Positions 31,705-58,145 of a DNA stretch of 64,000 nt are shown here, one piece after another. Both the position numbers and the translations under genes were made by a program. The stretch is from an uncultured Planctomycetia bacterium (GTDB lineage Bacteria > Omnitrophota > Gorgyraeia > 1-14-0-20-64-10), in contig CAYJWF010000001.1 of assembly GCA_964373805.1 (NCBI GenBank), positions 47,181-111,180 on the forward strand, given 5' to 3'. Position 1 is the first letter of the stretch. Every line of letters begins with the position of its first letter. The notes under the pieces are model-generated. The model was not told the origin of the DNA, ran no database searches, and saw only the letters and a list, made by a program, of their open reading frames with translations.

Positions 31705-31708
31705 GAAT

Positions 31709-31748: not shown

Positions 31749-31836
31749 AGCCTGCATTTTCCACAAGGGTCTGTCCCTTTTTGATTGAGTTATTTATCAT
31801 ATCAGTATACAATATTGTATACCACTGGTTTAATTT

Positions 31837-38935: not shown

Positions 38936-38960
38936 GCTCTTAAAAGGAGACCCCATCCCG

Positions 38961-39443
38961 GTGAAAAACCGAACTCCCCGATTCGTCGCTATTTTTCTTA
39001 TCTATGCCCTGCTTCTGCCAAGCCCTGCCTTTGCCATGAGGACACAGAGTGCCGATTCCAAAACAGTCGAATCCGGCCTGGAAGAAGCCCTTCGATCCGG
39101 AAAGCCGGATGCCCTTTTCAAATTCGGCACCGCCCGCCTCGCCGGCGCCCTGGGGATATCTCCGGCTGTTCCCTCTTCGAGAGCACCTGCCGTCGTTCCT
39201 CCGCGCTCCTCGACTGTCGCCGCCGGCCTGGAGGAGAGGGCTGTGGTGCAGGAGCGGGTGCGCCGGTTCTTAGCGGGGTTGGAGGAGCAAGCCCCGCAGG
39301 GGATGACCCCTATTCTGATTGGCCGGGCTCTACAAGGGCAGGATGCCCGGTTCCGAGCCTTAGCTGGGTTGGAGCAATTCAGCATTTATCTGGATCCTGG
39401 AGCCAGGGACAGAGACTCTCTCTTTTTACTCAATTTGTCATGA
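38961..39443 (+). CDS. small secreted protein with four [AS]GLE[EQ] motifs
   Basis: GTG start after good RBS; signal peptide (M)KNRTPRFVAIFLIYALLLPSPAFA|MRTQ; mature ~135 aa Ala/Arg/Leu-rich with SGLEE, AAGLEE, LAGLEE, LAGLEQ. Confidence 0.55.
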   Translation: MKNRTPRFVAIFLIYALLLPSPAFAMRTQSADSKTVESGLEEALRSGKPDALFKFGTARLAGALGISPAVPSSRAPAVVPPRSSTVAAGLEERAVVQERVRRFLAGLEEQAPQGMTPILIGRALQGQDARFRALAGLEQFSIYLDPGARDRDSLFLLNLS

Positions 39444-39673
39444 AAGGCTACCGGCATTTCCTTTTTGCCGGTTTGGAGGAGGCACAGGCTCTGCGTCCCT
39501 TAGCGGGTCTAGCCGGTATGACCCTTGACGTGGTTCCTCCGCAGCGATTCGAGGAGCTCATGCCATCCCTTTTGGCCAAGGCCACTGGATTGGAACAGGA
39601 GGCCCTTCGGGCCTGGGAAGGCTTCGGCCAGGTCATGGCCGGTTTGGAAGAGCTCGCCGCCCTCGGCGTGTAA
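39440..39673 (+). CDS. small protein with three xGLE[EQ] motifs, translationally coupled (ATGA) to upstream gene
   Basis: 77 aa MKGYRHFLFAGLEEAQ...ATGLEQEA...MAGLEELAALGV. Confidence 0.5.
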   Translation: MKGYRHFLFAGLEEAQALRPLAGLAGMTLDVVPPQRFEELMPSLLAKATGLEQEALRAWEGFGQVMAGLEELAALGV

Positions 39674-39736
39674 GCCTGCTCGAAGAGGTACCGGGACTGT
39701 ACAGTTTAGGTCAAAGGCGTTGACCCACCTCGTATC

Positions 39737-40084
39737 TTGCGTTATTCTAGCTGCACGGTGACTCCTGTGGGACTTCATAGAGAGCTTAATCGTGTAGTCG
39801 ATCTGATTAAGAAGCGGTACCATCCGAAGGAGATTATTCTCTTTGGATCTCTGGCAAGAGGACGCAGTCGTTCCGGCAGCGATATTGATCTCGTTGTGAT
39901 CAAATCTACTCGAAAATCCTTTGTAGATCGCTTGCGGGAAGTGGCCTTGCTCCACCACGCCCGTGTCGGGGTCGACATTCTAGTCTACACGCCTAAAGAG
40001 TGGGAACGATTGCAGCACGAGAAGCGTTGGTTTATCCTGGACGAGGTCTTAAAGAAGGGGCGAATCCTCTATCGTGCCGCCTGA
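39737..40084 (+). CDS. nucleotidyltransferase (MNT antitoxin-like)
   Basis: LFGSLARGRSRSGSDIDLVV minimal NTase motif. Confidence 0.7.
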   Translation: MRYSSCTVTPVGLHRELNRVVDLIKKRYHPKEIILFGSLARGRSRSGSDIDLVVIKSTRKSFVDRLREVALLHHARVGVDILVYTPKEWERLQHEKRWFILDEVLKKGRILYRAA

Positions 40085-40499
40085 TACAGGAGCCGTTGGC
40101 CACTGGTTACGATTTGCGGCAGATGATTTAAAAGCTGCTCGGTCGGTCCTGCGAGAAGGTCTTTACCACGTGACCTGTTTCCACGCCCAGCAAGCGGTTG
40201 AAAAAGGTCTAAAGGCGTATCTGGTGGCGAGAGGGAAAGCGTTGCCGCGTGAGCATCACCTGATTAACCTTTTACAGCACTGTGTCCGTTCAAAACTAAG
40301 CGGTAGTAGAGGAGTAGAGCATGCTTGTAAGATCTTGGATCAGTACTATCTACCTACTCGGTATCCAGATGCCCTAGTGGGAAGCCTCCCTCAAGGATTA
40401 CCCACTCGTTCCCACGCAACAGAGGCCATCGACCTGGCCGAGACGGCTTTGCGAGCCGTTCGGCGATCCATCAGAAGAAAATCTGTTTTCCCCGGGTAA
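40074..40499 (+). CDS. HEPN-domain protein
   Basis: FHAQQAVEKGLKAYL and YYLPTRYPD HEPN features; overlaps NTase gene. Confidence 0.7.
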   Translation: MPPDTGAVGHWLRFAADDLKAARSVLREGLYHVTCFHAQQAVEKGLKAYLVARGKALPREHHLINLLQHCVRSKLSGSRGVEHACKILDQYYLPTRYPDALVGSLPQGLPTRSHATEAIDLAETALRAVRRSIRRKSVFPG

Positions 40500-40544
40500 G
40501 CTCCTATGGTTCCCATGGGGCCGGCGTGCTATGCTTAAAGTGAG

Positions 40545-40866
40545 ATGGATGGCCGGATAAGAATTTTGCTGGCGGAGTTGAAAAAAAGAACTCCAGGCGA
40601 TTTACGGAGGCCGTTTGATAAGGGTCCACCTGTACGGTTCCTATGCCAGAGGCGAGGCGGATCCGGAGTCGGATGTCGATGTGTTGGTCGTGTTGGACGA
40701 ATACGACCGGTATTCTGTAGAGATAAGGCGGACCAGTCAACGGATCTCCTCCCTATGCCTCAAGTACAGTGTCAGCGTTAGTCGTGTGTTCATTTCTGAA
40801 GAGAAATGGTTAAGGGACGATTCGCCCTTTCTCCGGAACACGCGATCTGAAGCCATTGCCGCATGA
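40545..40866 (+). pseudogene. nucleotidyltransferase gene disrupted by +1 frameshift in an A7 tract (40581-40587)
   Basis: ATG 40545 frame gives MDGRIRILLAELKK then, with A6, would continue ELQAIYGGRLIRVHLYGSYARGEADPESDVDVLVV (the 40615..40866 ORF). Confidence 0.6.
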
Positions 40867-40991
40867 AGCCAGAGACTGAGAAACTGCTGGAGAAGGCGGC
40901 ACCTGGCAGGCCAACAGTAAGATTCCCTGTTCCGCAAGATGTCCGGCATTTCCTTTTTGCCGGTCTGGAACAGCTCGGCTCCAGCGCGTAG
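40863..40991 (+). CDS. 42-aa peptide ending RHFLFAGLEQLGSSA
   Basis: ATG overlaps NTase stop (ATGA); shares 30-nt identity (ccggcatttcctttttgccggt...tgga) with start of gene 39440..39673; below ORF-track size cutoff. Confidence 0.3.
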   Translation: MKPETEKLLEKAAPGRPTVRFPVPQDVRHFLFAGLEQLGSSA

Positions 40992-41136
40992 GCCCATCCC
41001 AACTTCCTCTGCGGGTGCATCCCAAGTTTGTCGGTAAAGGGTTAAAATAAGAGGAACTCCCCGAAGAAAGGAGTTCCTCTACCGTCGGGTTGATTCTCCC
41101 TTTTCGCTGTGGTAAAGTCGTTTTAAGGAGATACCC

Positions 41137-41358
41137 ATGCGGCTCAGTGAGGCAAAAAGGAAATATCGAGGCCAGTGGTTGGCGTTCTCTATCCGACGGG
41201 AGAAAGACGCAGATCCGGAAGGGACTCTGGTGGCCCACGCGAAGAGTCGCCATGAGCTGCATCGAAGGCTTCAAAAGCGACACATCTGGCGCGTGTATCT
41301 AACCTTTGCAGGTCCTCCTGTAAGGCCAGGCTACGCCGTCGTTTTTGTTCTGACTTAA
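41137..41358 (+). CDS. DUF5678-like small protein
   Basis: 73 aa; recollection of DUF5678 pattern, low certainty. Confidence 0.35.
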   Translation: MRLSEAKRKYRGQWLAFSIRREKDADPEGTLVAHAKSRHELHRRLQKRHIWRVYLTFAGPPVRPGYAVVFVLT

Positions 41359-41751
41359 GTGGAGCTTCCCCTCGTATTTGGAAAACCAATCCTCGTTCCG
41401 AGAGTCCGCGTCACTGGGCCAAAGGCCATCCGCGAGGTGGACCTATTCCTCGATACGGGGGCCCTTTATACCCTCCTCGCCGTTGATGTGTTACGTGAAG
41501 TTGGATGTGACCCGCTGGCTGCTCGTCGTCGCATTCCTATGGTGACTGCCAAGGGCGTCCTTACGGTTCCTGTTGTTCGAGTCCCATCCGTAGAGGTTGC
41601 CGGCTTTCGACTGAGGAACGTTTCTGTGCTTTGTCACGATATCCCTGAACTGGCCGAAGCGGCCGGATTACTTGGGCTTAACGTGTTGGAGTCGTTCATC
41701 ACTACGTTGGATTATGAGAAAAGGAAACTTCTCTTCCAGTTGTGGCGCTAA
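41359..41751 (+). CDS. retropepsin-like (clan AA) aspartic protease
   Basis: FLDTGALYT catalytic DTG motif in ~130-aa protein, GTG start abutting upstream gene. Confidence 0.6.
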   Translation: MELPLVFGKPILVPRVRVTGPKAIREVDLFLDTGALYTLLAVDVLREVGCDPLAARRRIPMVTAKGVLTVPVVRVPSVEVAGFRLRNVSVLCHDIPELAEAAGLLGLNVLESFITTLDYEKRKLLFQLWR

Positions 41752-42623
41752 AGATCCCTCTTTCTGAACTTCCCGCCGTTGCCAGAGAGATTCGTAAAGA
41801 AGTGGTCCGGATGCTGGGGGTGGCCGGTTCCGGGCATCCCGGCGGCTCTCTATCGGCGGCGGATATCGTGGCCACCCTGTTTTTCCACGTGATGCGGTAC
41901 GATCCGAAGAATCCCGATTGGGAAGACCGGGACCGGTTCGTCTTGAGTAAGGGGCACGGTTGTCCGGTCGTTTACGCGGCCATGGCGTTGGCCGGGTATT
42001 TTCCGCGAGAGCAGTTGATGACCTTACGAAAACTCGGCTCCCCGTTACAGGGGCATCCGGATCGGAAGCGCCTACCCGGTCTGGAGGCCTCTACCGGCTC
42101 CTTGGGGCAGGGGCTCTCCATTGCCAATGGGATCGCCTTGAGCGGCGCCATGGACCGAAAGGATTATTGGACCTTTTGCCTGATGAGCGACGGGGAGCTC
42201 CAGGAGGGGCAGAGCTGGGAAGCGGCCGCTTTCGCCGGGTTCCATCGGTTGGAGCGGCTCATCGCCATCGTCGATTACAATAAGTTCCAGTTGGATGGAG
42301 CGGTGGCCCAGATCAACGATCCGGAGCCCCTGCGGGCGAAGTGGGAAGCCTTCCGGTGGCACGTGCAGGAGATCGATGGGCACGATATCCCAAGGATCGT
42401 TCAGGCGATCGAGGCGGCGAAAGCGGTCAAGAAACAACCTCATATGATCATCGCCCATACGATCAAGGGAAAGGGGGTATCCTTCATGGAGAACAACAAC
42501 TATTTCCATGGGGTGGCTCCGAACGCCGAGGAGGCGCAAGCGGCTCTGAAAGAGCTGGAGGGTGACCCCTCTCTTTCGCAGGCGCTCATCGCCGCCGGCA
42601 AGGTGAAGACGGGCAACAAGTGA
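41742..42623 (+). CDS. transketolase, N-terminal (thiamine diphosphate-binding) subunit
   Basis: GHPGGSLS, GSLGQGLS TPP-binding motifs; split-transketolase arrangement. Confidence 0.8.
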   Translation: MALKIPLSELPAVAREIRKEVVRMLGVAGSGHPGGSLSAADIVATLFFHVMRYDPKNPDWEDRDRFVLSKGHGCPVVYAAMALAGYFPREQLMTLRKLGSPLQGHPDRKRLPGLEASTGSLGQGLSIANGIALSGAMDRKDYWTFCLMSDGELQEGQSWEAAAFAGFHRLERLIAIVDYNKFQLDGAVAQINDPEPLRAKWEAFRWHVQEIDGHDIPRIVQAIEAAKAVKKQPHMIIAHTIKGKGVSFMENNNYFHGVAPNAEEAQAALKELEGDPSLSQALIAAGKVKTGNK

Positions 42624-43609
42624 CGGTTATAGAAACCATGGAACGAAAACTGGGATGTGCCACCCGAGACGCGTACGGCCAGACCCTGGTCGAGTTGGGA
42701 AGAAACAATCCCCAGATCGTGGTGTTGGACGCGGATCTCGCCTCCTCCACGAGAACCCGGCTATTTGCCAAGGAGTTCCCGGACCGATTCTTTAATGTGG
42801 GGATCTCAGAGGCCAACATGGTGGGGATGGCCGGTGGGTTAGCTTCCTCTGGGAAAATCCCCTTTATCTCCAGCTTTGCCTGCTTCATGACCTGCAAGGC
42901 GTACGATCAGCTCCGGATGGCGGTGGCGTATCCCCATTTGAACGTCAAGGTGGTCGTTTCCCATGGTGGGATCAGCGTAGGAGAAGATGGAGTCTCCCAG
43001 CAGTCGATCGAAGACGTGGCCCTGATGACGTCGCTTGCCCATTTTACCGTGATCGTCCCGGCCGATGAGCATGCCACGCGGGCGCTGGTGAAGGAGGCCG
43101 CGTCAACGGTGGGGCCCATCTACCTTCGAACCGGAAGGCCCAAGGCCCCTTTGATCTATCAACAGTCGTCGGCCTTTTCCATGGGGAAAGGGAATCTGCT
43201 TCGCCAGGGAAAGGATGTCACCGTGATGGCCAACGGCCTATTGGTCTTTGAAGCGCTGGTGGCGGCCGAGGAGTTGGAGAAGGCAGGGATTTCCGCCGCC
43301 GTGGCGGATCTCCACACGGTTAAGCCGCTGGATGAGTCGCTGATTCTCTCTCAGGCGAAGGCCACCGGGGCGATTGTCACCGCCGAGGAGCACCAGATCT
43401 GGGGCGGCTTAGGTTCGGCGGTAGCCCGCATGGTAGCCCGGACGCATCCCGTTCCGATGGAGTTCGTGGCCATCCAAGACACCTATGCCGAATCGGGCAA
43501 GCCGGAAGAGCTGTTCGAAAAGTACGGGCTTACCTCCCAGCACGTCGTCGAGGCGGTCCGGCGGGTGTTGGAGAGAAAATCTAAAGGGGTCAGACCCCAT
43601 CAGCAATGA
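42620..43609 (+). CDS. transketolase, C-terminal (pyrimidine-binding) subunit
   Basis: Transketolase Pyr and C-terminal domains; last codons KGVRPHQQ encoded by GGGGTCAGACCCC repeat. Confidence 0.8.
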   Translation: MTVIETMERKLGCATRDAYGQTLVELGRNNPQIVVLDADLASSTRTRLFAKEFPDRFFNVGISEANMVGMAGGLASSGKIPFISSFACFMTCKAYDQLRMAVAYPHLNVKVVVSHGGISVGEDGVSQQSIEDVALMTSLAHFTVIVPADEHATRALVKEAASTVGPIYLRTGRPKAPLIYQQSSAFSMGKGNLLRQGKDVTVMANGLLVFEALVAAEELEKAGISAAVADLHTVKPLDESLILSQAKATGAIVTAEEHQIWGGLGSAVARMVARTHPVPMEFVAIQDTYAESGKPEELFEKYGLTSQHVVEAVRRVLERKSKGVRPHQQ

Positions 43610-44250
43610 AACTTTATCTTAAATCTCTCGAGTTAGGGCCCCTTCAAAACCTTGTCTATTTAATCGGCTGCCTCGAGACCCGAGAATCGGCCGTGGTCGA
43701 TCCGGCCTGGAATGTTCCCAAAATCTTGGAGACCGCCGTCCAGGATGAGATGCGGGTGACGACCGCGATCATCACCCACACCCATTTCGATCATGTGAAT
43801 GGCCTGTCGGATCTCTTGAAAGCGGTGGATCCCAAAGTGATCGTCCATAAAAAGGAGGCGGCTCAGCTTGCCATCGAGCGATCCAGCGTCCAGGCCGTCG
43901 AGGGAGGGCAAGAGATCCCCCTAGGAAACTTAAAGCTCTCATTCCTCCATACCCCAGGGCATACGCCCGGCTCTCAGTGCATCACCGTGGCCGATCGGTT
44001 GATCGCCGGGGATACCCTCTTCGTTGGGGGCTGCGGTCGTTGCGACCTTGCCGGCGGGGACCCCGAGGCGCTGTACCAGAGTTTGGTTCGATTGAACCAA
44101 CTCGACGATCGAACGATTCTCCACCCCGGCCATAACTACGCCGCTTCCCCTACCTCGACCTTGAGGGAGGAGAAGTCGTACAATCCGTTCTTGAAGGCCC
44201 CGAGCGTGGAGGGCTTCCTTCAGCTCGTTGGCGCCGTCCGAAAGCGGTAA
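43606..44250 (+). CDS. MBL-fold metallo-hydrolase
   Basis: THTHFDHVNG HxHxDH motif. Confidence 0.75.
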   Translation: MKLYLKSLELGPLQNLVYLIGCLETRESAVVDPAWNVPKILETAVQDEMRVTTAIITHTHFDHVNGLSDLLKAVDPKVIVHKKEAAQLAIERSSVQAVEGGQEIPLGNLKLSFLHTPGHTPGSQCITVADRLIAGDTLFVGGCGRCDLAGGDPEALYQSLVRLNQLDDRTILHPGHNYAASPTSTLREEKSYNPFLKAPSVEGFLQLVGAVRKR

Positions 44251-44253
44251 GGC

Positions 44254-44322
44254 GAGATTGCTTCGTTCCCATTGCGGAGTTTACCCTGAGAGCCATCGAA
44301 GGGCTCTGGGTCCTCGCAATGA
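44254..44322. repeat. REP-like repeat, degenerate inverted pair between MBL-hydrolase gene and folB
   Basis: gagattgcttcgttcccattgcggag ... gggtcctcgcaatgac. Confidence 0.6.
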
Positions 44323-44335
44323 CGGTGGTGGATGA

Positions 44336-44734
44336 ATGGACCGGATCCTGATGGAAGGGCTCAAAGCCGATGCCCATGTCGGGGTTCTCTTAAAGGAACG
44401 AGAGAAACGCCAGCGGATCTTGATCGATCTGGAGTTGGGGTTGGATTTAAAGCTGGCCGGTGAGAGGGACCGCGTGCAGGCGACGATCGATTACGTCGCG
44501 GTGGCTAAGGAAGTGAAGGATCTTGTGGAGGGCCGGTCTTTCCACTTGGTGGAGGCGATGGCCGAGGCGGTCGGAAAGCTGGTTTTAGAGCGGTTCAAAC
44601 CGGCTCAGGTTCGGGTCAGGATCCGGAAGTTTTCGGTTCCGGCAACGAGCTGGGTGGGTGTAGAGATGATCCGGCCTACGAGTTCCGGTAACTCGCGAAA
44701 GAGGTCGACGTCTCCCAGAGTCGGACCTCGGTGA
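44336..44734 (+). CDS. folB: dihydroneopterin aldolase
   Basis: FolB-like core ...TIDYVAVAKEV...VGVEMIRP; C-terminal tail overlaps queD on opposite strand. Confidence 0.6.
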   Translation: MDRILMEGLKADAHVGVLLKEREKRQRILIDLELGLDLKLAGERDRVQATIDYVAVAKEVKDLVEGRSFHLVEAMAEAVGKLVLERFKPAQVRVRIRKFSVPATSWVGVEMIRPTSSGNSRKRSTSPRVGPR

Positions 44735-45080
44735 CCGGAAAGCCTTTGGATTGGGCGTAGGTGAAGATCATCCGAGCCAGCGCCTCGGCGGTGGGATTCT
44801 CCTCGATTATGACGATGGGTTCCTTCAGGCTGTTTAAGTGCGGGATGATGAGATCCGCTCGGTTCAGGATCATCTTGTGATCCAGGGCGGTGTCGATCCA
44901 AGCCTGGATGCCCTGTTTAATCTCCTCGAAATCCATCACCATCCCCCGGTGGTCCAGTGTATTGCGGCTGAGCTCAATCTCCACCTTGGCGTTGTGCCCG
45001 TGGAGGAACCGACACTTCCCCTCGTAGTTCAACAGCCGATGGCCGTAGCAGAAATGAATCTCTTTGGTCACCTTGTACAA
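44676..45080 (-). CDS. queD: 6-carboxy-5,6,7,8-tetrahydropterin synthase
   Basis: CYGHRLLNYEGKCRFLHGHN motif. Confidence 0.8.
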   Translation of the reverse strand: MYKVTKEIHFCYGHRLLNYEGKCRFLHGHNAKVEIELSRNTLDHRGMVMDFEEIKQGIQAWIDTALDHKMILNRADLIIPHLNSLKEPIVIIEENPTAEALARMIFTYAQSKGFPVTEVRLWETSTSFASYRNS

Positions 45081-45142
45081 GAACGCTTCTCCTAGGGACA
45101 GTTCTCTTAAAGAGAACCGTCCCTGACTCGCCCCATGATACG

Positions 45143-45859: not shown

Positions 45860-45860
45860 C
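45811..45860. repeat. REP-like repeat, degenerate copy between queC and sdhC
   Basis: gcgtcattacttcgctcctctcgccttcgctcggggtcctcgcaatgac; contains queC stop. Confidence 0.6.
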
Positions 45861-45881
45861 GATGATAGGAGAATTTACACC

Positions 45882-46679: not shown

Positions 46680-46691
46680 AGTTAAGCCAAA

Positions 46692-46705
<14 letters not shown>
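46646..46705. repeat. MITE-like element: GGTGCCAGGCACC ... AACTTTTATAAAGTT ... GGTGCCAGGCAC
   Basis: Spans sdhD stop and sdhA start; supplies ATGGTGCCAGGCAC = MVPGT. Confidence 0.7.
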
Positions 46706-48458
<1,753 letters not shown>

Positions 48459-48521
48459 ATGGTACCAGGTACAATTTCGGCTCAACTTTTTAAAAGTTAT
48501 ACCGATTTTGTACCTGGTACC
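48459..48521. repeat. MITE-like element (GGTACCAGGTACA ... AACTTTTTAAAAGTT ... TGTACCTGGTACC)
   Basis: Between sdhA stop and sdhB; near-identical to 10887-10947. Confidence 0.75.
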
Positions 48522-48540
48522 GTTTTCGTACCGTTTTCCG

Positions 48541-49239: not shown

Positions 49240-49263
49240 GGAACGAAGTGACGAAGCAATCTC
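49228..49263. repeat. REP-like repeat copy at sdhB stop
   Basis: gcgtcattgtgaggaacgaagtgacgaagcaatctc. Confidence 0.75.
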
Positions 49264-49478
49264 GGTTTAAGGGATCGCCCGCCCCGGCCCCTGGTTCCCA
49301 AGCCGGGCCGGGGAGTCGGCCTGGCACCTTTGGGCCAGAGGCCTTCCCTCCGGCGTCTCCCCCCGACAACACGCAGCGTCACCTCTACTGCCCCACGTGC
49401 GGCCAGCGTCTCACCAATCGCTCGTGCAAATGGTGGTGCCCGACCTGCGGCTACCACGAATCCTGCGCCGATGGCTAA
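49249..49478 (+). CDS. small zinc-ribbon protein (uncertain)
   Basis: C-terminal CPTCGQRLTNRSCKWWCPTCGYHESC; possible GTG start inside repeat; mostly low-complexity. Confidence 0.3.
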
Positions 49479-49486
49479 TCGGCCGG

Positions 49487-49564
49487 CCCCCCACGTTTTG
49501 TTTTGTTTCGTTTGCCCTGAGGAATCGCGCGAAGCAAAACGAAACTTAGGGGGGCTGGGCAACG
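49487..49564 (+). terminator. long GC-clamped imperfect stem-loop after sdh operon
   Basis: cccccc acgttttgttttgtttcgtttgc ... gcgaagcaaaacgaaac ttagggggg; no U-tract. Confidence 0.3.
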
Positions 49565-49596
49565 GTGAAGTAAAAATTAGATAAACCCAGTTATCC

Positions 49597-49625
49597 TTGA
49601 CAATTTCCGGCCGATCGGCCATACT
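49597..49625 (+). promoter_or_regulatory. candidate promoter of giant gene: TTGACA, 12-bp palindrome GGCCGATCGGCC in spacer, weak -10, near-leaderless
   Basis: TTGACA 49597-49602; CATACT/ATACTT 49620-49626; ATG 49638 with no Shine-Dalgarno. Confidence 0.35.
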
Positions 49626-49637
49626 TAATACATCCCT

Positions 49638-52600
49638 ATGCGAAATCGAATCGTAGCTGGTTTAACCGTTCTAGCATTCCTGCTTGGCCAAACGCCCGCC
49701 TACCCCTTTGACCACGGGGAAGGAGGGAAGCGTCCCGGCTTTGGGTCAGCCGTTCTTCGCCCTCTCAGCCCGGATCAGTCGGATTGGATGAGGCAGGCCA
49801 TTGAAGCCGGTTTGGAGGAGCCCGCCGGAGAAGAAACGCGCTCGTTTGAGGAGCTGCTTTTAGAGATTCTGGACGAGGAGAAAGCCAGAAACCGCTCCAG
49901 CCGGGATTCAAAGAGACTGTTGAATCGGTTTGTGGAGTTTTTTGAAGAGGATGCAAGGAGCGGTTCTTCGGTGCCCGAGACTGTGACTGTGGAGGCAAGG
50001 GCCAGGAGGATCTTATTAAGGCAGACCCCCGGAGTAACCGTGGCTAAATTACGCCAAGAGACAGACAACCCCAGTAAGAGGTTTTCCCTTCGGAACCTTC
50101 CGGGAAGGAAAGGGGAAATGGCCTTGCCTAACGTATGGGTCTTGCGGGAACAGGTAGCAAGGACTGCTCGGATTCTCGAGGGGTTAAAGATTACCCAAGA
50201 CAAGGGGCCTATCTCCGAGCCTCCTACTTTAGAATCAACCCTGACACCTACAGAGTACTTAGCTAGGTTAAGAACGCACCTGTTCTATTCCAACCAACAG
50301 CAACAGTACCTTTCGGTCCCGACGTACGGGGTCGTTGGTTTTTTTGATCCGGAGGAATACCGCCGCGCGGGAGAAGAAACACCCTATGCGGTTTTACCTG
50401 TCTTGGCCGTCCGACAAATCGGCCTTCAGCCTTCCCTCCGAGCCTTTGACTTGGCCATCGGAATGGTGGACAACGGGCTCAAGAAGGTCGAAATGCGAGA
50501 ATCGGGAACCGACCATCCGCCTTTTCTTCTTCTCCACTTTGCAAGGCCACTGATCGATGCCGAAAGCGGCCGGAGAGGTCTGGACCGGCTGGCCGTTTTT
50601 CTGCTCAAGACACCCTGGCCTGAGCTTCCCAAGTTGGCGGGGGATAGACCGCTTGAGACTCTTCCCGATGAGGAATTTCTTAACGCGGTTCTGCAATCTT
50701 TACTGGCGGAGAGAGAACATCTCGAGCAGGACGCGGGACGGCTTCGGCAGATTGCCTTTGAGGAAGGGGAACCGGTTTCTATTCAGATAGAGAAACGGGA
50801 ATCCCTTCTCCGGTTAGCCCTAGCGGAGAGGCTTGTTCCTCGGTCAGGCTATCAACCTTACACGGCAGCCAGCGCCGTGAGACTCGCTCGGTGGATGGGC
50901 CGAACCGTGAGGGAGAGGCAGTTCATCCGACAGCATATGGAGTTGTTGATAGAGGAGGCGAACCTGATCGAGGCCTCCGGAGCTGTGACGTGGAGTCGTT
51001 CGTCTAAAACGGAGAAAGCCATAGAGGCACTTTGGGAGAGGTTTCACCGGTGGAAGAGGCGCACAGGGATTTTGCAAGAGCTTGGGACCTTGGATCTGGC
51101 TGAGATCCCGGGGGCTGCAGAAAGGGTTGAGCAGCTCGACAAGAAGCTTCTGATTCCTAAAAAGGACGTTTCGATGGAAGCTTGGCGGCTGTATCTGCCG
51201 TTGCTTCGGCTGGTTCTTGCCAGAGATTCCCTGGGCCAATGGGTGCTCAACGACCAGGAGGCTACCTACCTGCTCAATCGCATGGAAAAATTCCGTCAGG
51301 AGTTGCTGAATGGGGTTCTCGTGATGGAGAGAACGTTAGCCTCGATGACCCCGGGAGAGGCTCAGGCGATCCTATCTTTTGAACTTAACCAGGCACTTCT
51401 TGACCCGCTGATTCAGAAACCGCTGAAAACCCCTCGGGTGACGCTGCAAAAGGCCCTGCTGAAGGAATGTGAGCGGTTGTTCCAGGTTTCTTTGGGCAGG
51501 TCCCCCACGGCTTTGGCCCTGTTAAGAGACGAGCGAGAGGCTTTATTCAAAGAGGTTCGCCAGGTTCAGGGCAGATTCTGGGCCAGCCTTCTGGGGAACT
51601 TGTCGGAAGCAGAGAAGGCTCTGACGGAGTTCGAGCGACTGGATGAGCGTTTGAGGGCGTTCGGTCCGCGGCTTGCAGGCAGGGACGTAGGGGTGGCTTC
51701 GGAGGGCGGCGGCGTGCCACCCCTACCACTGTCTCAAGAAGGAATTTTGTCTTTCCTAGACAGGATGAAGGAAAAGATAACAACACCAGCGAATTTGGGA
51801 CGACTGGAAAATCCTTCTGGGCTTGATCTGTACCGATCCCTTTTGGATATCGCCCGGCTCGTCCCAGAAGGCCGTGTGAGAGAGGCTTTCGAAAGGAGCC
51901 GGTTGGATGCAGCGATCTCGCTGGAGGAATGGGAGCGGCCCTTTTTGGGTTCGTTCCGGCGGAGACTGGCTGAGCGGATTGCCCAAGAGGTCCTGGAGGA
52001 TGCCCAGACCGCTCCGCCAACACAGCAGAAGGCAGCCGAACAGCGGATCTTAGAGGCAGCGGAACTGGTAGGGGAGTTTCCACAGATCGCAGGGAAACTT
52101 TTAACCACCGATCGGGCCAAGGCGAAGGCTTTACTCTCGGCTTTTACCACGGAATTGTCGGATAAGGGAAACCGGCTCCTTCGAGAATTTGTAGTGGCTA
52201 AGGCCAGCCGGGAACCTTTCCCAGAAGCCAAGGAGGATAAGCTCAGAAAACGTTACCGCAGTCTCCATTCCGGTAGAGGAGTCCCAACGCTGTACGAACG
52301 GGTAGCCTTGGATCTGGATCCCTCCCTTCTTCCCAACCGACCCATTCCTTCCGGATCGGTTTCGCCAACGATTGTAAGGAAGGAAGATTCCACCGCCGGC
52401 CTGGAGGAGAAAAAGGGCGGTTCCATTTTGGATAGGGAAGGGGAGAAGCAGATCCGCGAGGCCACTCAGGCATTAGACGGAGCCCTCCACCCCATTGGGA
52501 ACCCGGTCGTTTTTTTCTCCAAGGTCGAAGCTGCGGTCGTTTTTTTCTCCAAGGTCGAAGCTGCGCTGAAGGCCATTGGAGAAGTGCCTTCTTCTCGATG

Positions 52601-55600
52601 GCCTAACCTTTTTCAAGAGGAGTTTAAACGACTTAGGGATCAATTGAGAATTGCCGAGAGGCATCCTGACCAGAAGGAGTTTGCCCAGAGGATGCGGCAC
52701 TCCCTCTCTGATTTTCGGGACCGGTGGAACAGGTCTCTTGCCCAAGAGGGAATTTCGTCTGGCCGGGAACAAAAGCCCGCCAGTGAGAAAAAGGTCGATG
52801 GGGGAATTATCCCTCAACAGAGGCCTTTGCCTAAGCGACCATCGAAACGGCAGCGGATCATTGAGGAGCTGTCGCGGTTGCCGGATGAGAGAAAACGTCT
52901 CAAATCCCTTCGCCTGGCGGCTGGATTTCGGTCTCCCCATGAGTTAGAAAAAGCAGCCGGGGTGGCCTGGGCGACGGTATCCCGAATGGAATCCGGCAAG
53001 CGAGGAATCGGTCCCCACGTCAGGCGAAAGGTGAAAGGGCTATTGGAAAAGGAGTTGGGTCTACGACTGACGTTTCACTTCCGTTTGATAGAGTTTCCTT
53101 TAGAGCGCAGTGTCAATGTCTTGCCGACGACCGAGGATCGGTTTACTTTCCTCAAGGACGAACTTCTGGGATGGACCAAGCAAGAACTCGCTCAGCGAGC
53201 GAACGCCATCAGGAGTCTCCCTTCTCCTGCTTTGGACACGCGCTACCGCCATGCGCCGATGGATCAAACCCATTTCTGGATTCGGCGTTCCATCCGGGAT
53301 GCTCTGGAACGTGGTTTATCGGAGGAGTTTCAACGCCCTGTACGGCTTGACGGACGTCTTCGGATTGTTACGAATTCGGTTGCCGGGCATCTCAGAGCTT
53401 TGCCCAATGCCGAGGCGCGTCTGACCTGGTTGTTGGAGGAGGAACTTGTCTGGTATCGGAGCGAATTTCTTAGAGAAGCGGGGTTCAAAGAGCATGGGAA
53501 GGTACAGCCCCCTCCGAATCAGCAATCCCAGGCGTTGCAGAGGTGGGAGAAACTCCGTCGCGCGCTCGAGCGAGGTTTGGCCAAGCGGGGAGAGCAGATT
53601 TCTCTTGATGCCAACTTGCTCCCTCAGACCGGCCTGGAGGAACGGAACCAGAGCAGACCCAGTGGGTTGGACCTAGGGCAACAGGTGAGGCGGCTGGTGG
53701 ATACGGCGAAGGGGTTAGCCTCCTCCGGACAGGAAGGGGATGCCCTAGGGGTGCTGGATGAGGCGCTTCGGTTAGATCCTGAGAATGCCCATACCTTGGT
53801 GGAGAAGGCGAGCCTGTTGGACCGACGGCGGAGCTTAAGAAAAGCCCTTCAGGCCATTAATCGAGCCCTCTTGATCGATCGCCGTCGCATCCGTGAACTT
53901 GGGATCGGCCCGATTCGTGGTCGAGATAAATCTGGACGTATTTATCTGGTCATCCGAACGATTCGGGCAAGGATCCTGTTTCACTTAAGTCAACAAGAAA
54001 GGGATCCGACGCAGCGTCTTCATTTCCATCGAGGAGCAGAGAATTCGGTTAAGCAGGCCCTCCAGTGGGATCCGACGGATCCTTGGGCGGTGAAACAAGC
54101 GGTTCAGATCATTCATAGGCGTCCAGTGGAGCACGAGAGCTATGAACAAAGGTGGGAGGATGCCCAGGAAGTGGCGGCTCCCCTCTTGGCCAGAGTGGGC
54201 AGAGGGGAGTTTCGAGAGGAAGATGACCGACTTTCTATTGCACAGATACTTCATGATCTCAAGTGGACCGAGAGAATGGTTACGTTTCTTGAGGAAACGG
54301 TGTTACCCCAGAACCCCGGGTGGCCTCCAGCGTTAAAACTCTTGAGTGAGGGAAAGCGCGATTTAAATAAACCCACCGCTGGTTTGGAGGAGCGGTGGGT
54401 GCGTGTGATTGCCGACGATGCCACGGGTGGCGCGGAGTTGGTGTTGGAGCTCGCCAAGAGAGGTAAGAGGGCCCTTCTCGTCTCTCTGGACACCCCGGAT
54501 AAGCTTCTCAAGCGGTATCGGGTTATTGTGTACAACACCCTGGCTCGGAATCTGTCTCCCCGAGAGACGCGCCTTCGCACAGGCCAGGTCAAGGGTTCCA
54601 TTCTTCAACCGGGAGAGTGGGCCTACCTTAAGATCGATTCGACCCTCCGTGGGAATTGGCTGGATGGGATCATCGCCTGGACCAAGAGGCTTCAACCGGA
54701 GGTGATCTTGGTGGCGCCGGCCATTGTTTCACAGGGAAGAGCGACCCGACAGGGAGTCCATGAACTCCTCGAGGGAGGGAGTTGGATCCCCCTGCATCAA
54801 ACCATGTACCGTGACCTGATTGATCCGGGACTGGTTCAATCAGAATCCAATCTTCAGGAATATCTGCGGCAGCGGGTCTCGGCGAAGGTGGAGCTCCTCA
54901 ACCGAGAGGTCATTGAGCAAGGGTCTGAAGAGGTTCGCAAACGGCTCGCCGGTGTGGAAAAAGGGACTTACCTCGTGGCGGATGCCACCGAGAGCCGACA
55001 CCTTGAATCCATAGCTGAAGCTGTCCATGAGCTTCCCCGACCGATCCTTTGTTCCGGTTCTGCCGGCCTCTTCGGCACCCTGGTCAAGGAAGAGAAATCG
55101 GTTGAATTAGTGCCCTGGGTGGAACAGCTCATCAAAAAGACTTCACGGGGCAGAGGGAAGGTGTTGGTACTGGCCGGCTCTCGTCACCCAAGATCAGACG
55201 AACAGGTCAGAAGAGCTCTCGAGAGTCTTCCGGGTCGCGTGGCCCTGCTGAAGATTTCCACGGAAGGCTTCCAAAGAAGGCAGACTCGAGCTGCTGGGAT
55301 TCGGCGTGCCCAGCGGAAGATCCATCGAGCTTGGCAGCAGGCCCAAGGTGTCATCCTCCAGTTCGAGCCGCCGCGTCTTAAGAAACGGAGCCACCAAACA
55401 CAGCGTGCCATGGCGGAATTTTACCGTGAACTGTTCGGCACAAGGGAGATTCAAGGTCAGCTCGGCCTTCTCGTTGTTTTTGGGGGAGACACCTTGGGTA
55501 CAGTTCTAACGGGCTTCCAAGCCGGGTTTACCGCTACAGGAGAAGTGGCTCCTCAGATCTCTTACGGGCAGCTCATCACCATGGATCGACCGCCTTTGCC

Positions 55601-58145
55601 TCTCATCAGCAAAGCCGGCGGATTTGGGGATCGGGACTTGCTCGTCGATATCCTGACCCAAGCGCGTGCCATCGCCCCTGCCCGCCTGGGGATTACCATG
55701 GGGGATCCGGCGGGGAGCGGGCCGGAGCTGCTCCTTCGGGCTCTCGTCCAAGAACCCACCTTCCTGGAAAAGGCGGAGCTTCTCGTCATTGGCGATGCCA
55801 AGGTCCTCAGGCAAGCGCGGGATTACTTTAAAATTCGAGGGGCTCCTCAAATTCGGGCGATTGCTCGGGTGGAAGAGGCCCGATTTGTTCCAGGGGTTCT
55901 CAATGTGATGGATCTTGAGAATGTCAATTCGGAGATCCTCAAGAAAAGTTTTGGCCCGGTCGGTGTGGATTTGGACGAGGAAACCCGCCGTCATTTTGGC
56001 CAAGCAGCCCTGCAGTCTATCGATGGGGGAATGGAGTTGGCTTCGGCAGGGAAGGTGGATGGCCTGGTCACCCTGCCGGTTACCAAGGAGGATATCGATC
56101 TGGTTTCTCCAGGTTTCCGAGGCCATACCGACCATCTGGCCAAGGGGTTAGGCACCCTCACCGGCTCTGGGGTGGTCACCATCGCCTTGATTTACGGAAA
56201 GCTCCGGGTCCTTCACGTGACGACGCACCTGTCGCTTAAAAAGGTGGTGGAGGAGTTCCAGAAGCCGGAGATTACCGATAAGATTCTAGAGCTCATTCGG
56301 ATAGCAGACCAGATGGGACGTCGCTACTTCGGTTTTAGCCTGGCGAAACGACCTCGCATTGGGGTATTGGGACTCAACCCTCATGCCGGAGAAGGGGGAC
56401 TGCTGGGCACGGAGGATCAAGAACGGATTCAGCCGGCTATTGATCAGGCTTTGGAAGAAGGATTGAACGTTGCGCCACACCCGGTCCCTGCCGACACGGC
56501 CTTTACCAGAGAGGTCCGCAATGGCTACGATTTCATCATCGCCATGTCCCACGATCAGGGCCACGGACCCTTTAAGGCGCTGGCCGGGTTTGAGGGGGTG
56601 AACGTAACCGGGAATCTACCGATTGTTCGTACCAGCCCAGACCACGGAACCGCTCGGCAGGAGGCCTGGAACAGAGATCGGGATGTCTCCCTTACCACGA
56701 GAGGGCTCATCGCCTCCATCCGCTCCGCCATCAAGATGGTCCACGCCGCCCCCCGCTCTGCCTTGATGTCGAAGGAGACTACCGCCGGCCTGGAGGAGAC
56801 CGCCAAGGAAAAAGCGAAAAGGGTCAAGGGGTTGCTAGAGGTGGCTTCCCACTTGGCTTCTGCAGAGAGATTTGAGGATGCCTTGGAGAAAGCTCGGGAG
56901 GCTTTTCGGTTGGATTCCGGCAACACGGCGGTCGTAGTGCAGTTAGCAAGTCACTTGGATCGGATCGGATATCGGGATCAGGATTCTGAGAAAGTCCATA
57001 ATGCGCTAAGCGCTATTGAGGTGGTTCTTGGGAAACTCCCGAAGAATCCGGGCGCGCTAACGGTCAAAGCCAGAATTCTGTTTCATCTCAGTAAACTGGA
57101 GAAGGACGAGAAGAGCCCAGAACGCCACATCGAGGCAGAGAGAATCCTTTGGCGCGTTCTCAGGGAAAATTTCCCAGACCACCGGGCAACGCTTACGCTC
57201 GTCCACGTTATCCATGGTCGTTCTCACGAAGACGCCCGGTTTCAAGGTAAGCATGTCGATGCCCTGCGGGTTGCGTTGCGAATTTTGGAAAGAGGTGAGC
57301 CCCGTCGAATGAAATACCGAGAATGGTTTGCCCAGCTCTTATTCGACTTAGGAGACCTGGGATGGGCAGACCATGTTGCCAGTAAAATGGTTCAACAGGG
57401 TCGTAAGGGACCCCCTTCTTTCCGCCGCCTTGTTGAGAATATCCCAGCCAGGCGCAAGGAGTTCGGTGATATGAAACTCATGTTGCGTGCGGCCTTGAAG
57501 GGGCTCAGCGATTGGGACAGAACGGTTTTCTACCGGGCGCGGAATCGCAGTTTGGGATCCCTCGCTGGCCCTTCGGTTCGTGCTCCGGACTCGCTCGGAG
57601 CCGGTTTGGAGGAGTTGCCGGAGCCGGTGGCGGAGGCGTTGAGGGCGGAGCCGGAGGCGGCGGTGACGAGGGCGGTGGTACTGGATGCGGATGGGATTCC
57701 GCAGGTGGTGGTGACACTTCGGGTACCGGTTGATGTTCCGTCGGCTCCCAAGATTTTGGTGAAGCCGGTGGTGTTGGCGCAGTTGGGGTTGTTGCCAGAT
57801 CAGGTCGTGGGACGATTCCAATCCTGGGGATGGTCGGTGACGTTCATGCCGGCCGATTTAACGGGGAAACGGCTTCTGGGGGAAGTCGACGCTGGCCTTG
57901 AAGAATGGGAGGGCCCCCTTTTCGTGATCGTCGATGAAAAGTGGGAGGAAACGGTTAAGCAACTACCGGCCTACTCCCGTGTGACGGCGGTTGCCTTGGA
58001 TCGATCGTTGGCGCATGCCCTGGATCCTGACCTGCTGGTTTTGTCTCTCTTGCAGGCTTTCAAGAACCTTCCCGGCCGGTTCCTCAGGCCGGAATATTTC
58101 CTTCAGACCGGCTTGGAAGAGATCGTCGTCGCTACCCAGTTGTAG
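49638..58145 (+). CDS. giant (2835-aa) signal-peptide helical/TPR protein with embedded DUF1537 kinase-PdxA dehydrogenase module
   Basis: Single stop-free ORF; N-terminal hydrophobic signal/anchor; Leu/Glu/Arg-rich helical and TPR-like sequence; residues ~1588-2375 carry IADDATGG, VVFGGDTLG (four-carbon acid sugar kinase) and ITMGDPAGSGPEL, NPHAGEGG, MSHDQGHGP (PdxA family); eight xGLEE motifs. Confidence 0.7.
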   Translation: MRNRIVAGLTVLAFLLGQTPAYPFDHGEGGKRPGFGSAVLRPLSPDQSDWMRQAIEAGLEEPAGEETRSFEELLLEILDEEKARNRSSRDSKRLLNRFVEFFEEDARSGSSVPETVTVEARARRILLRQTPGVTVAKLRQETDNPSKRFSLRNLPGRKGEMALPNVWVLREQVARTARILEGLKITQDKGPISEPPTLESTLTPTEYLARLRTHLFYSNQQQQYLSVPTYGVVGFFDPEEYRRAGEETPYAVLPVLAVRQIGLQPSLRAFDLAIGMVDNGLKKVEMRESGTDHPPFLLLHFARPLIDAESGRRGLDRLAVFLLKTPWPELPKLAGDRPLETLPDEEFLNAVLQSLLAEREHLEQDAGRLRQIAFEEGEPVSIQIEKRESLLRLALAERLVPRSGYQPYTAASAVRLARWMGRTVRERQFIRQHMELLIEEANLIEASGAVTWSRSSKTEKAIEALWERFHRWKRRTGILQELGTLDLAEIPGAAERVEQLDKKLLIPKKDVSMEAWRLYLPLLRLVLARDSLGQWVLNDQEATYLLNRMEKFRQELLNGVLVMERTLASMTPGEAQAILSFELNQALLDPLIQKPLKTPRVTLQKALLKECERLFQVSLGRSPTALALLRDEREALFKEVRQVQGRFWASLLGNLSEAEKALTEFERLDERLRAFGPRLAGRDVGVASEGGGVPPLPLSQEGILSFLDRMKEKITTPANLGRLENPSGLDLYRSLLDIARLVPEGRVREAFERSRLDAAISLEEWERPFLGSFRRRLAERIAQEVLEDAQTAPPTQQKAAEQRILEAAELVGEFPQIAGKLLTTDRAKAKALLSAFTTELSDKGNRLLREFVVAKASREPFPEAKEDKLRKRYRSLHSGRGVPTLYERVALDLDPSLLPNRPIPSGSVSPTIVRKEDSTAGLEEKKGGSILDREGEKQIREATQALDGALHPIGNPVVFFSKVEAAVVFFSKVEAALKAIGEVPSSRWPNLFQEEFKRLRDQLRIAERHPDQKEFAQRMRHSLSDFRDRWNRSLAQEGISSGREQKPASEKKVDGGIIPQQRPLPKRPSKRQRIIEELSRLPDERKRLKSLRLAAGFRSPHELEKAAGVAWATVSRMESGKRGIGPHVRRKVKGLLEKELGLRLTFHFRLIEFPLERSVNVLPTTEDRFTFLKDELLGWTKQELAQRANAIRSLPSPALDTRYRHAPMDQTHFWIRRSIRDALERGLSEEFQRPVRLDGRLRIVTNSVAGHLRALPNAEARLTWLLEEELVWYRSEFLREAGFKEHGKVQPPPNQQSQALQRWEKLRRALERGLAKRGEQISLDANLLPQTGLEERNQSRPSGLDLGQQVRRLVDTAKGLASSGQEGDALGVLDEALRLDPENAHTLVEKASLLDRRRSLRKALQAINRALLIDRRRIRELGIGPIRGRDKSGRIYLVIRTIRARILFHLSQQERDPTQRLHFHRGAENSVKQALQWDPTDPWAVKQAVQIIHRRPVEHESYEQRWEDAQEVAAPLLARVGRGEFREEDDRLSIAQILHDLKWTERMVTFLEETVLPQNPGWPPALKLLSEGKRDLNKPTAGLEERWVRVIADDATGGAELVLELAKRGKRALLVSLDTPDKLLKRYRVIVYNTLARNLSPRETRLRTGQVKGSILQPGEWAYLKIDSTLRGNWLDGIIAWTKRLQPEVILVAPAIVSQGRATRQGVHELLEGGSWIPLHQTMYRDLIDPGLVQSESNLQEYLRQRVSAKVELLNREVIEQGSEEVRKRLAGVEKGTYLVADATESRHLESIAEAVHELPRPILCSGSAGLFGTLVKEEKSVELVPWVEQLIKKTSRGRGKVLVLAGSRHPRSDEQVRRALESLPGRVALLKISTEGFQRRQTRAAGIRRAQRKIHRAWQQAQGVILQFEPPRLKKRSHQTQRAMAEFYRELFGTREIQGQLGLLVVFGGDTLGTVLTGFQAGFTATGEVAPQISYGQLITMDRPPLPLISKAGGFGDRDLLVDILTQARAIAPARLGITMGDPAGSGPELLLRALVQEPTFLEKAELLVIGDAKVLRQARDYFKIRGAPQIRAIARVEEARFVPGVLNVMDLENVNSEILKKSFGPVGVDLDEETRRHFGQAALQSIDGGMELASAGKVDGLVTLPVTKEDIDLVSPGFRGHTDHLAKGLGTLTGSGVVTIALIYGKLRVLHVTTHLSLKKVVEEFQKPEITDKILELIRIADQMGRRYFGFSLAKRPRIGVLGLNPHAGEGGLLGTEDQERIQPAIDQALEEGLNVAPHPVPADTAFTREVRNGYDFIIAMSHDQGHGPFKALAGFEGVNVTGNLPIVRTSPDHGTARQEAWNRDRDVSLTTRGLIASIRSAIKMVHAAPRSALMSKETTAGLEETAKEKAKRVKGLLEVASHLASAERFEDALEKAREAFRLDSGNTAVVVQLASHLDRIGYRDQDSEKVHNALSAIEVVLGKLPKNPGALTVKARILFHLSKLEKDEKSPERHIEAERILWRVLRENFPDHRATLTLVHVIHGRSHEDARFQGKHVDALRVALRILERGEPRRMKYREWFAQLLFDLGDLGWADHVASKMVQQGRKGPPSFRRLVENIPARRKEFGDMKLMLRAALKGLSDWDRTVFYRARNRSLGSLAGPSVRAPDSLGAGLEELPEPVAEALRAEPEAAVTRAVVLDADGIPQVVVTLRVPVDVPSAPKILVKPVVLAQLGLLPDQVVGRFQSWGWSVTFMPADLTGKRLLGEVDAGLEEWEGPLFVIVDEKWEETVKQLPAYSRVTAVALDRSLAHALDPDLLVLSLLQAFKNLPGRFLRPEYFLQTGLEEIVVATQL
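52505..52564 (+). repeat. perfect 30-bp in-frame tandem duplication (2 x ggtcgtttttttctccaaggtcgaagctgc) inside giant ORF
   Basis: Encodes VVFFSKVEAA twice; each unit contains a T7 homopolymer (52510-52516, 52540-52546). Confidence 0.9.

Follow-up and report, generated by a model that had tools for sequence, protein, structure and literature searches.

We describe here a pentapeptide that recurs along a giant predicted protein encoded in a 64-kb window of bacterial DNA (64,000 nucleotides of contig CAYJWF010000001.1; "the window" denotes this whole stretch, and all positions follow its numbering). The protein, of 2835 amino acids, is the product of an open reading frame (ORF) at 49638..58145 on the forward strand, hereafter the giant ORF, and corresponds exactly to database protein P0007. 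It belongs to a previously undescribed family of modular proteins that share a C-terminal domain, which we term CTD1, and we propose that the pentapeptide, [A/T]GLEE in the giant protein, is the junction motif of this family, read by a trans-acting factor, for which an endoproteolytic processing site is the role we favour. We hold this statement as a whole tentatively, at a probability of about 0.45. Neither the motif nor CTD1 nor the family is described in Pfam, NCBIfam, PADLOC, the PDB or the literature that was searched, and two preprints on giant proteins of Omnitrophota mention neither the motif nor a polyprotein nor linkers.

A six-frame scan of the window located eight copies of [A/T]GLEE in the giant ORF, all of them in frame, with codon blocks at 49806, 52395, 53628, 54378, 56784, 57600, 57891 and 58107, which reproduces exactly the list given in an initial annotation of this DNA. 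The same annotation had counted four, three and one further copies in three small ORFs upstream. These counts hold when one-residue variants are included, while the strict form [A/T]GLEE accounts for only four of the eight, the other four having serine at −1 relative to the glycine or glutamine at the last position (+4). Counting the variants is justified, since the consensus of the junction signature across the family, [A/S/T]-G-[L/M]-E-[E/Q], admits serine at −1 and glutamine at the end. Outside the giant and the three small ORFs, [A/S/T]GLE[E/Q] is absent from every frame and both strands of the window, again as originally claimed; the sole other GLEE is an LGLEE at 5491, antisense to sufB, and the other occurrences of GLEQ (14930, 56663 and, on the reverse strand, 41584) are preceded by V, G or M. 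At the nucleotide level the pattern GGNYTNGARGAR has 15 matches in the window, every one on the forward strand and 13 of them in frame within the four ORFs, against an expectation of 2.63 ± 1.44 from 100 shuffles, none of which reached 15. Across the family and the small ORFs together there are 53 copies of G[LM]E[EQ], compared with 1.7 when the sequences are shuffled at constant composition (at most 7). Of the 53 copies, 50 have A, T or S at −1; methionine (ATG) stands in place of leucine in four, and glutamine replaces glutamate solely at the last position. At all loci inspected the motif is confined to genes of this family or of a second motif-bearing family described below, and to their reading frame.

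The family was delimited by an exhaustive HMMER (phmmer) search with residues 2370-2835 of the giant protein. Besides the protein itself, this search returned 11 relatives of 227-2732 amino acids (P0008-P0018, E values from 3e-45 to 4e-18), which align over the last ~185 residues only (query residues 282-466). The CTD1 so defined is ~150-185 amino acids long, with a mean column identity of 44% in alignment A2. It has no match in Pfam or NCBIfam, and a sequence search of the PDB with the CTD1 profile gave nothing below E=0.17. No relatives were found in a viral scan, and PADLOC returned no match for the giant or the small ORFs. A metagenome scan yielded one locus, a near-duplicate of that of P0010, and a 21-nt repeat scan of genome contigs yielded three chance matches in unrelated phyla. 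One relative comes, by annotation, from a 'Candidatus Omnitrophica' metagenome-assembled genome (MAG), and the carriers of CTD1 are probably Omnitrophota-type bacteria.

Full-length members (P0010, P0012-P0017 and the giant protein) follow a common plan, in which a signal peptide (judged by eye from the sequence, here and throughout) and a leader precede variable, mutually unrelated modules that are parted by xG[L/M]EE, and CTD1 closes the chain. The leader carries a conserved 'LRP' followed, 9-17 residues later, by xGLEE, and by eye the first [AST]GLE[EQ] of each of these proteins lies ~15-35 residues behind the signal peptide. CTD1 begins with xGLEE(L/V)P and ends with xGLEExxxVSTQL, and the last copy is found 7-25 residues from the C-terminus across the family. 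What lies between the motifs are folded domains of 70-1400 amino acids; in the relatives Pfam recognises a UDP-glucose dehydrogenase-like domain with a GHMP kinase, CofD-like, HATPase_c, TPR and HTH_17 domains and, weakly, a GNAT domain. Most members are without TPR modules.

The giant protein can be read against this plan from end to end, all of its elements lying on the forward strand. Its N-terminal leader (49638..49820) consists of a Sec-type signal peptide (MRNRIVAGLTVLAFLLGQTPAYP...), the conserved 'LRP' and AGLEE at 49806-49820 in the context AIEAGLEEPAG, and is homologous to residues 1-62 of P0010 (45% identity). Module 1 (residues 62-919; 49821..52394) has no recognisable domain or homolog. 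The N-terminal 1580 residues likewise gave no homolog in a word-indexed search, a negative to be read with the limit of that index, which also missed known CTD members: a CTD alignment retrieved nothing from it even though the members are in the collection. Motif 2 (STAGLEEK; 52395..52409 in the six-frame scan) leads into module 2 (residues 925-1330; 52410..53627), in which residues 1087-1126 weakly match HTH_31/HTH_3. Within module 2, positions 52504-52563 hold a perfect in-frame tandem duplication of 30 bp (VVFFSKVEAA twice), which indicates either a very recent internal duplication or replication slippage. Motif 3 (PQTGLEER; 53628..53642) precedes module 3, a TPR-like solenoid (53643..54377, folded core at residues 1343-1574) assigned from Pfam TPR_19 and an AlphaFold model. 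Module 3 is the ortholog of residues 63-279 of P0010 (50% identity), and the homology ends at the motif.

Motif 4 (PTAGLEER, residues 1581-1585; 54378..54392) adjoins the kinase domain of module 4 (54393..56783), which matches SBD_N and NBD_C over residues 1590-2002 and a PdxA-type dehydrogenase over residues 2016-2371. The Pfam scores are 120.6, 59.0 and 230.7 bits for SBD_N, NBD_C and PdxA, against cut-offs of 25, 28.3 and 27, and the catalytic-looking motifs ADDATGG, GHTDH, NPHAGEGG and SPDHGTA are intact. Judged by these features, module 4 is a complete DUF1537-type four-carbon acid-sugar kinase fused to a PdxA-type dehydrogenase. The NCBIfam equivalog thresholds for D-threonate kinase and 4-hydroxythreonine-4-phosphate dehydrogenase are not reached (124 versus 450 and 246.5 versus 290). 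Its nearest relative, P0001, is a stand-alone DUF1537 kinase/PdxA fusion of 742 amino acids with the same three domains and 38% identity; P0001 has no motif, whereas module 4 is embedded between two. The kinase match begins at residue 1590, just after motif 4, and the PdxA match ends at residues 2346-2371, ahead of motif 5 (TTAGLEET, residues 2383-2387; 56784..56798), so that the bracketing of the enzyme module proposed in the initial annotation is borne out. Motif 5 is identical to motif 2 over 19 nt (ACCGCCGGCCTGGAGGAGA) and is followed by module 5 (56799..57599), a second TPR-like solenoid and a paralog of module 3 (30% identity, E=5e-15); the two paralogs each follow a motif and together flank the enzyme module. 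The CTD1 region (57600..58142) opens with motif 6 (GAGLEELPEP; 57600-57614) and continues through a disordered linker to an alpha/beta core, one helix of which holds a partly conserved AGLEEW (residue 2752; 57891-57905). The C-terminal tail TGLEEIVVATQL (58107-58142) contains the last motif, 12 residues from the C-terminus. Copies were thus located, as had been claimed, both directly behind the signal peptide (49806) and at the extreme C-terminus (58107).

Seven family loci were compared, namely the window and L004, L006, L007, L008, L010 and L013. The family gene lies directly 3' of sdhB in four genomes, represented by the window, L004 (the Omnitrophica MAG), L007 and L010/L011; L006, L008 and L013 do not show it in this position. 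At the sdhB locus the genes on either side share 52-84% identity with their counterparts in the window, whereas the encoded proteins measure 2835, 2011, 1095 or 1258 residues and share the CTD only (36-41% identity), with the leader and one TPR-like module shared in addition by L007. We conclude from these comparisons that the family proteins are fast-evolving and that they occupy a hyper-variable locus amid housekeeping genes. Several of the breakpoints coincide with the motif. The block of TPR homology with P0010 stops with the last base of motif 4 (54392); the homology shared with the CTDs of P0009, P0012 and P0015 begins at 57597-57600; and an insert of ~300 GNAT-like residues in P0013 relative to P0011 lies between two motif copies. 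From one ortholog to another, modules are gained and lost, and several of the breakpoints lie at the motif. The earlier suggestion that the motif delimits modules is supported both by these starts and ends of homology and by the predicted linkers beside well-folded domains that are described below.

The motif could in principle be conserved as peptide or as DNA. It is clear from the sequences that it acts mainly at the peptide level, because the residue classes are kept across genomes while the codons vary. The initial annotation had argued for selection on the peptide and against a DNA signal, and the first half of that argument stands, since relatives encode the same pentapeptide with different codons; the second half is weakened by a bias at synonymous sites. 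The leucine codon is YTG in 15 of 16 window copies, against a background of 0.44 (p=5e-5), or 0.58 for leucine before glutamate, and in 14 of 15 copies from four relatives; the glycine codon is GGY in 13 of 16 window copies, against a background of 0.40 (p=1e-3). With such bias in the synonymous leucine and glycine codons, there may be a nucleotide-level component as well. One could go further and suppose that the 12-15 nt of GCCGGYYTGGARGAR are a recombination or microhomology site for in-frame insertion, deletion and swapping of cassettes, the peptide being merely tolerated. The codon bias would follow from such a site, as would the single orientation of all copies, the 19-nt identity of motifs 2 and 5, the 18-nt direct repeats that flank the kinase-PdxA module and the breakpoints of ortholog homology at the motif. 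Yet the codon at −1 varies between GCC, GCT, GCG, ACC, ACT and TCC, and the following codons between GGC, GGT, GGG and GGA, between TTG, CTG and CTT and between GAG and GAA, while the residue class is strictly kept across genomes; the four ATG-for-leucine copies and the restriction of glutamine to the last position point the same way. Not one occurrence is out of frame or on the reverse strand, the loci have no conserved recombinase, and 12-15 nt is short for homologous exchange. We therefore regard a primarily DNA-level signal as quite improbable; the motif-coding DNA (GCC GGY YTG GAR GAR) may have a secondary role, in which it would provide microhomology for in-frame exchange of modules.

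A second nucleotide-level explanation starts from the GGAGG that is contained in nine of the 16 window copies, which could act as a Shine-Dalgarno (SD)-like sequence in the RNA, pausing ribosomes at domain boundaries or driving internal initiation; 6 nt past motif 4 there is indeed a GTG, just where the kinase domain naturally starts. Against this, none of the genes with a clear ATG start (sdhA, mbl, folB, queC, the HAD gene and the giant gene) has an SD-like sequence upstream, GGAGG is hardly rarer in core genes (2.9 per kb) than in the giant gene (3.6 per kb), the seven copies that lack it are still YTG-biased, and only one of the eight giant-ORF copies has a suitably placed downstream start codon. 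This explanation is largely refuted and we give it next to no weight.

The motif is also found in proteins that do not carry CTD1. At L008 (3-521) and L013 (2-2044) an ORF directly upstream of the CTD1-family gene contains two to three motif copies, and the two upstream ORFs share a C-terminal domain of their own, CTD2, which ends in ...LGVQL (38% identity, E=4e-21). Homology between CTD1 and CTD2 was rejected, as hhalign gave it a probability of 0.3%. By eye, the region before the motif in the L013 upstream ORF resembles a PP2C phosphatase. The occurrence of an identical motif in non-homologous, co-located proteins argues for a common reader acting in trans, as opposed to inheritance by duplication. 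The extreme C-termini are conserved within each family, as [S/A]-[T/S]-Q-L-COOH in CTD1 (58131-58142 in the window, and relatives) and as G-V-Q-L-COOH in CTD2; these ends are PDZ-ligand-like, and they may represent a recognition tag.

Two AlphaFold models, one of the CTD and one of the TPR module with its flanking motifs, between them include three junction copies. All three fall in segments with a predicted local distance difference test (pLDDT) score below 50, beside domains with scores above 90, and in the TPR-module model the helical solenoid of residues 1343-1574 is flanked on both sides by motifs (3 and 4) in such segments. In these models, then, the junction copies are predicted to lie in disordered linkers at module boundaries. 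The predicted fold of CTD1 is alpha/beta and CheY-like, a generic match, and no conserved pocket residues are obvious in it.

A conserved short motif in disordered linkers is suited to binding as well as to cleavage, and the uncleaved motif might instead be bound by a partner (the CTD, the TPR-like modules, or a component of the surface or secretion apparatus) that oligomerises the protein, anchors it or hands it over. TPR domains typically bind short acidic peptides, and TPR-like modules recur in the family; two adjacent families with different CTDs and a common motif would suit hetero-assembly, and the PDZ-ligand-like [S/T]-x-L end would be in keeping with a binding function. However, docking of the TPR solenoid onto its own flanking motifs was not seen in the AlphaFold model, which left both undocked; TPR modules are missing from most members, and CTD1 offers neither an obvious conserved pocket nor more than a generic fold. 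Copies at every boundary, including those at the signal peptide and the C-terminus, also exceed what docking would need. We consider docking without cleavage unlikely.

It might alternatively be supposed that the motif has no specific reader at all and is a helix-capping or spacer sequence, copied along with the modules by internal duplication. The paralogous TPR-like modules do each follow a motif, the 30-bp tandem duplication shows that the giant gene duplicates internally, and some copies lie within CTD helices. The flanks of most copies are nevertheless unrelated, the motif is kept in non-homologous neighbours and in family members that have diverged to 30-45% identity, although the linker around it is free to change, and the 53 copies against 1.7 expected are far above linker composition. 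An inert linker thus has little probability in our judgement. Because an identical motif in disordered segments is maintained in unrelated contexts, a trans-acting reader must exist if this reasoning is right, and the reader would most likely be an endopeptidase that cuts at or beside the motif. Such an enzyme would trim the protein at both ends, removing the leader and the short C-terminal tail, and would release the modules from a Sec-exported, 'beads-on-a-string' precursor. We favour processing because copies behind the signal peptide and near the C-terminus suit trimming better than they suit a spacer role, and because each module has the look of a complete protein; a chain of complete proteins with uniform sites between them follows the logic of a polyprotein.

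Several observations weigh against this reading. No protease is conserved in the neighbourhood of the family gene at the seven loci. A candidate in the window, a retropepsin-like protein (41359-41751) of 130 amino acids with a DTG active-site motif, overlaps the start of the transketolase gene; we rejected it as the dedicated protease, given that L004 and L007 do not have it, that it carries no signal peptide and that its match is to PDC-M08B, a candidate defence family of PADLOC. Enzymes that depend on ATP or NAD and helix-turn-helix (HTH) domains are odd cargo for a protein exported by Sec, and the signal peptides themselves were assigned by eye only. Not every copy can be a junction, since the AGLEEW of the giant protein and the xGLEEAVK that some members have inside CTD1 are parts of folded helices and only partly conserved. 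The bias at synonymous sites is not accounted for by a purely peptide-level signal, and the family is small, with about 12 clusters at 50% identity.

Proteins with comparable features are known from other systems. Gingipain/HagA-type polyproteins and other cargo of the type IX secretion system (T9SS) of Bacteroidota combine a signal peptide, heterogeneous modules and a shared CTD, and the precursor is cut at the boundaries. The giant protein resembles them in its signal peptide, its string of modules and its conserved CTD, its processing being our proposal. It differs in that CTD1 is alpha/beta and CheY-like as opposed to a beta-sandwich, has no Por_Secre_tail (Pfam) or TIGR04183 (NCBIfam) match, and that a fixed pentapeptide takes the place of Arg/Lys sites, the enzyme modules are of cytoplasmic type and the phylum is another one. 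Polymorphic toxins carry demarcation motifs, such as 'VENN' in CdiA and 'PxxxxDPxGL' in Rhs proteins, and MafB belongs to the same class; here too a short peptide and its coding DNA mark an exchange boundary, in fast-evolving loci near mobile toxin-antitoxin (TA) genes. In CTD1 proteins, by contrast, the C-terminal domain is conserved and the interior varies, with many junctions per protein, and neither a toxin domain nor a cognate immunity gene was found in the family; the TA pairs or HAD gene downstream are unrelated and differ between loci. Viral polyproteins likewise hold complete proteins in one ORF, with a repeated short sequence in flexible linkers, but the giant gene is chromosomal, lies in a housekeeping neighbourhood and has no viral relatives, and there is no protease module within its ORF. 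The chlamydial Pmp proteins, from the PVC superphylum, bear GGA[I/L/V] and FxxN repeats inside the beta-helix rungs of an autotransporter passenger. They are similar in having many copies of a very short motif and in being large, signal-peptide-bearing and fast-evolving, and different in that the motif described here sits in disordered linkers between globular modules, with no beta-barrel or autotransporter domain. In cyanobactin precursors a G(L/V)E(A/P)S recognition sequence, read by a protease, stands before each core of 6-8 residues. A repeated 'G-L-E-x' element ahead of each cassette is common to both systems; the cassettes here are folded modules of 70-1400 amino acids, not cores of 6-8 residues, and no PatA/PatG-type or subtilisin-like protease was found among the scanned ORFs of the window. 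Other identities were considered and rejected. The proteins are not sortase (LPXTG) substrates, there being one chance LPQTG (residues 1327-1332) and tails of 6-12 residues without a membrane segment, and neither a prepilin signal nor a lipobox agrees with the sequence.

The three small motif-bearing ORFs belong to a block of 2.8 kb (38957..41741) inserted between nuoJ and the transketolase gene, which is lineage-specific, being missing in the syntenic L004 and L007. The block holds in addition an MNT/HEPN pair, an MNT fragment and the retropepsin-like protein. Small ORF 1 (38961..39443, forward strand as are the other two; 160 amino acids from a GTG) has a signal-peptide-like N-terminus and the features of a leader module, with SGLEE at 39072, AGLEE at 39222 and 39273 and AGLEQ at 39363, and by tblastn with residues 4-117 of P0016 it is homologous to the N-terminus of that protein (38% identity over 117 residues, E=6e-10). 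From its sequence it is a family leader without cargo or CTD. Small ORF 2 (39440..39673; 77 amino acids) carries AGLEE at 39467, TGLEQ at 39584 and AGLEE at 39638, ends in AGLEELAALGV*, and has neither a signal peptide nor a significant homolog. ORFs 1 and 2 overlap by ATGA in different frames and may be one frameshifted gene; a relationship of the two to the CTD2 family is plausible by eye and was set aside as not significant (E=1.8). Small ORF 3 (40863..40991; 42 amino acids) lies directly behind the truncated MNT gene and has one AGLEQ, at 40959. A 27-nt direct repeat, CCGGCATTTCCTTTTTGCCGGTYTGGA, encoding RHFLFAGLE, occurs on the forward strand at 39451..39477 and, with 26 of 27 positions identical, at 40943..40969, the two copies flanking the remainder of ORF 2, the MNT-HEPN pair and the MNT fragment. 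The motif of ORF 3 is consequently not an independent copy, as it lies within this DNA duplication of the ORF 2 start, and ORF 3 is probably a remnant. These ORFs had been described as small secreted proteins, a description that suits the signal-peptide-like start of ORF 1, as read by eye, and fails for ORFs 2 and 3, which lack one. The accompanying idea of decoys did not survive the homology of ORF 1 to the P0016 leader and the origin of the ORF 3 motif in the 27-nt duplication; the best reading of the three is that an insertion contains a truncated or minimal paralog together with remnants.

The giant gene itself has the properties of a coding sequence of unusual composition, its frame scoring best throughout while the G+C content at third codon positions is 0.61, as against about 0.74 in core genes. 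A promoter-like site (TTGACA-17-CATACT, a 10/12 match to the consensus; 49597..49625, forward strand; one site versus 0.1 expected) ends 12 nt 5' of its ATG, which suggests that the gene may be transcribed from a promoter of its own, with a very short leader. The sdhB-giant gene spacer (49240-49596) is G+C-rich and, at ~400 nt, unusually long compared with the 126 nt of L004. It contains an imperfect inverted repeat (gttttgtttcgtttg ... caaaacgaaac), and a 110-codon ORF within it has no coding signal. Mutually unrelated TA pairs are found directly 3' of the family gene at three loci: MNT/HEPN in the window (58257-59007), MazE/PIN in L010 (5545-6172) and a HicA/HicB-like pair in L008 (6230-6633). 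In L010, as in the window, the pair separates the family gene from a HAD-fusion gene; L007 has no pair there, and the region 3' of the family gene looks like an insertion hot spot. In the window the MNT/HEPN pairs lie just 3' of small ORF 2 and just 3' of the giant ORF.

The rest of the window is ordinary chromosome, with genes for SufB, CstA, the CCA-adding enzyme, aconitase, a split nuo operon, transketolase, FolB, QueC, SdhAB and an enzyme of the futalosine pathway, and Rfam and tRNA scans of it were empty. SufB (3091-5820, reverse strand) contains an intein with a LAGLIDADG homing-endonuclease domain. The genes nuoJ-L-M are on the strand opposite to nuoB-I, an arrangement common to L004, and between the two nuo halves lies a patch of low G+C content (0.49; 30442-33137) encoding a DUF4143 AAA ATPase and an AbiEii-type toxin. 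A palindromic element of ~60 nt (GGTACCAGGTACAAAATCGGCTCAACTTTT / inverted) is present twice, upstream of cstA (10888-10948) and between sdhA and sdhB (48461-48521), with three half-site matches to its pattern against none expected; it could be a hairpin similar to repetitive extragenic palindromic (REP) elements or a regulator site.

Taken furthest, the proposal is that of a novel bacterial polyprotein system, in which modules, complete enzymes and binding domains among them, would be captured in frame between pentapeptides, exported behind one signal peptide and cut by a dedicated protease, with the motif DNA serving as microhomology for the entry of new cassettes and the two families, despite their different C-terminal domains, as substrates. 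We regard this fuller scheme as doubtful. If true, it would supply a rapidly reshuffled cocktail of proteins that might act on a host or prey cell or inside it. The processing reading predicts peptide termini at the motif, and a reader predicts a gene whose phyletic pattern matches that of the motif. If processing is confirmed, the family would be a rare bacterial counterpart to the polyproteins of viruses. With a universal junction motif, moreover, large proteins that lack annotation could be parsed into functional units by a simple rule in a phylum that is uncultivated and perhaps host-dependent. Such a motif would point to a novel reader, either a protease or a receptor, and it would show how complete enzymes can enter exported proteins in frame at a hyper-variable locus flanked by housekeeping genes.

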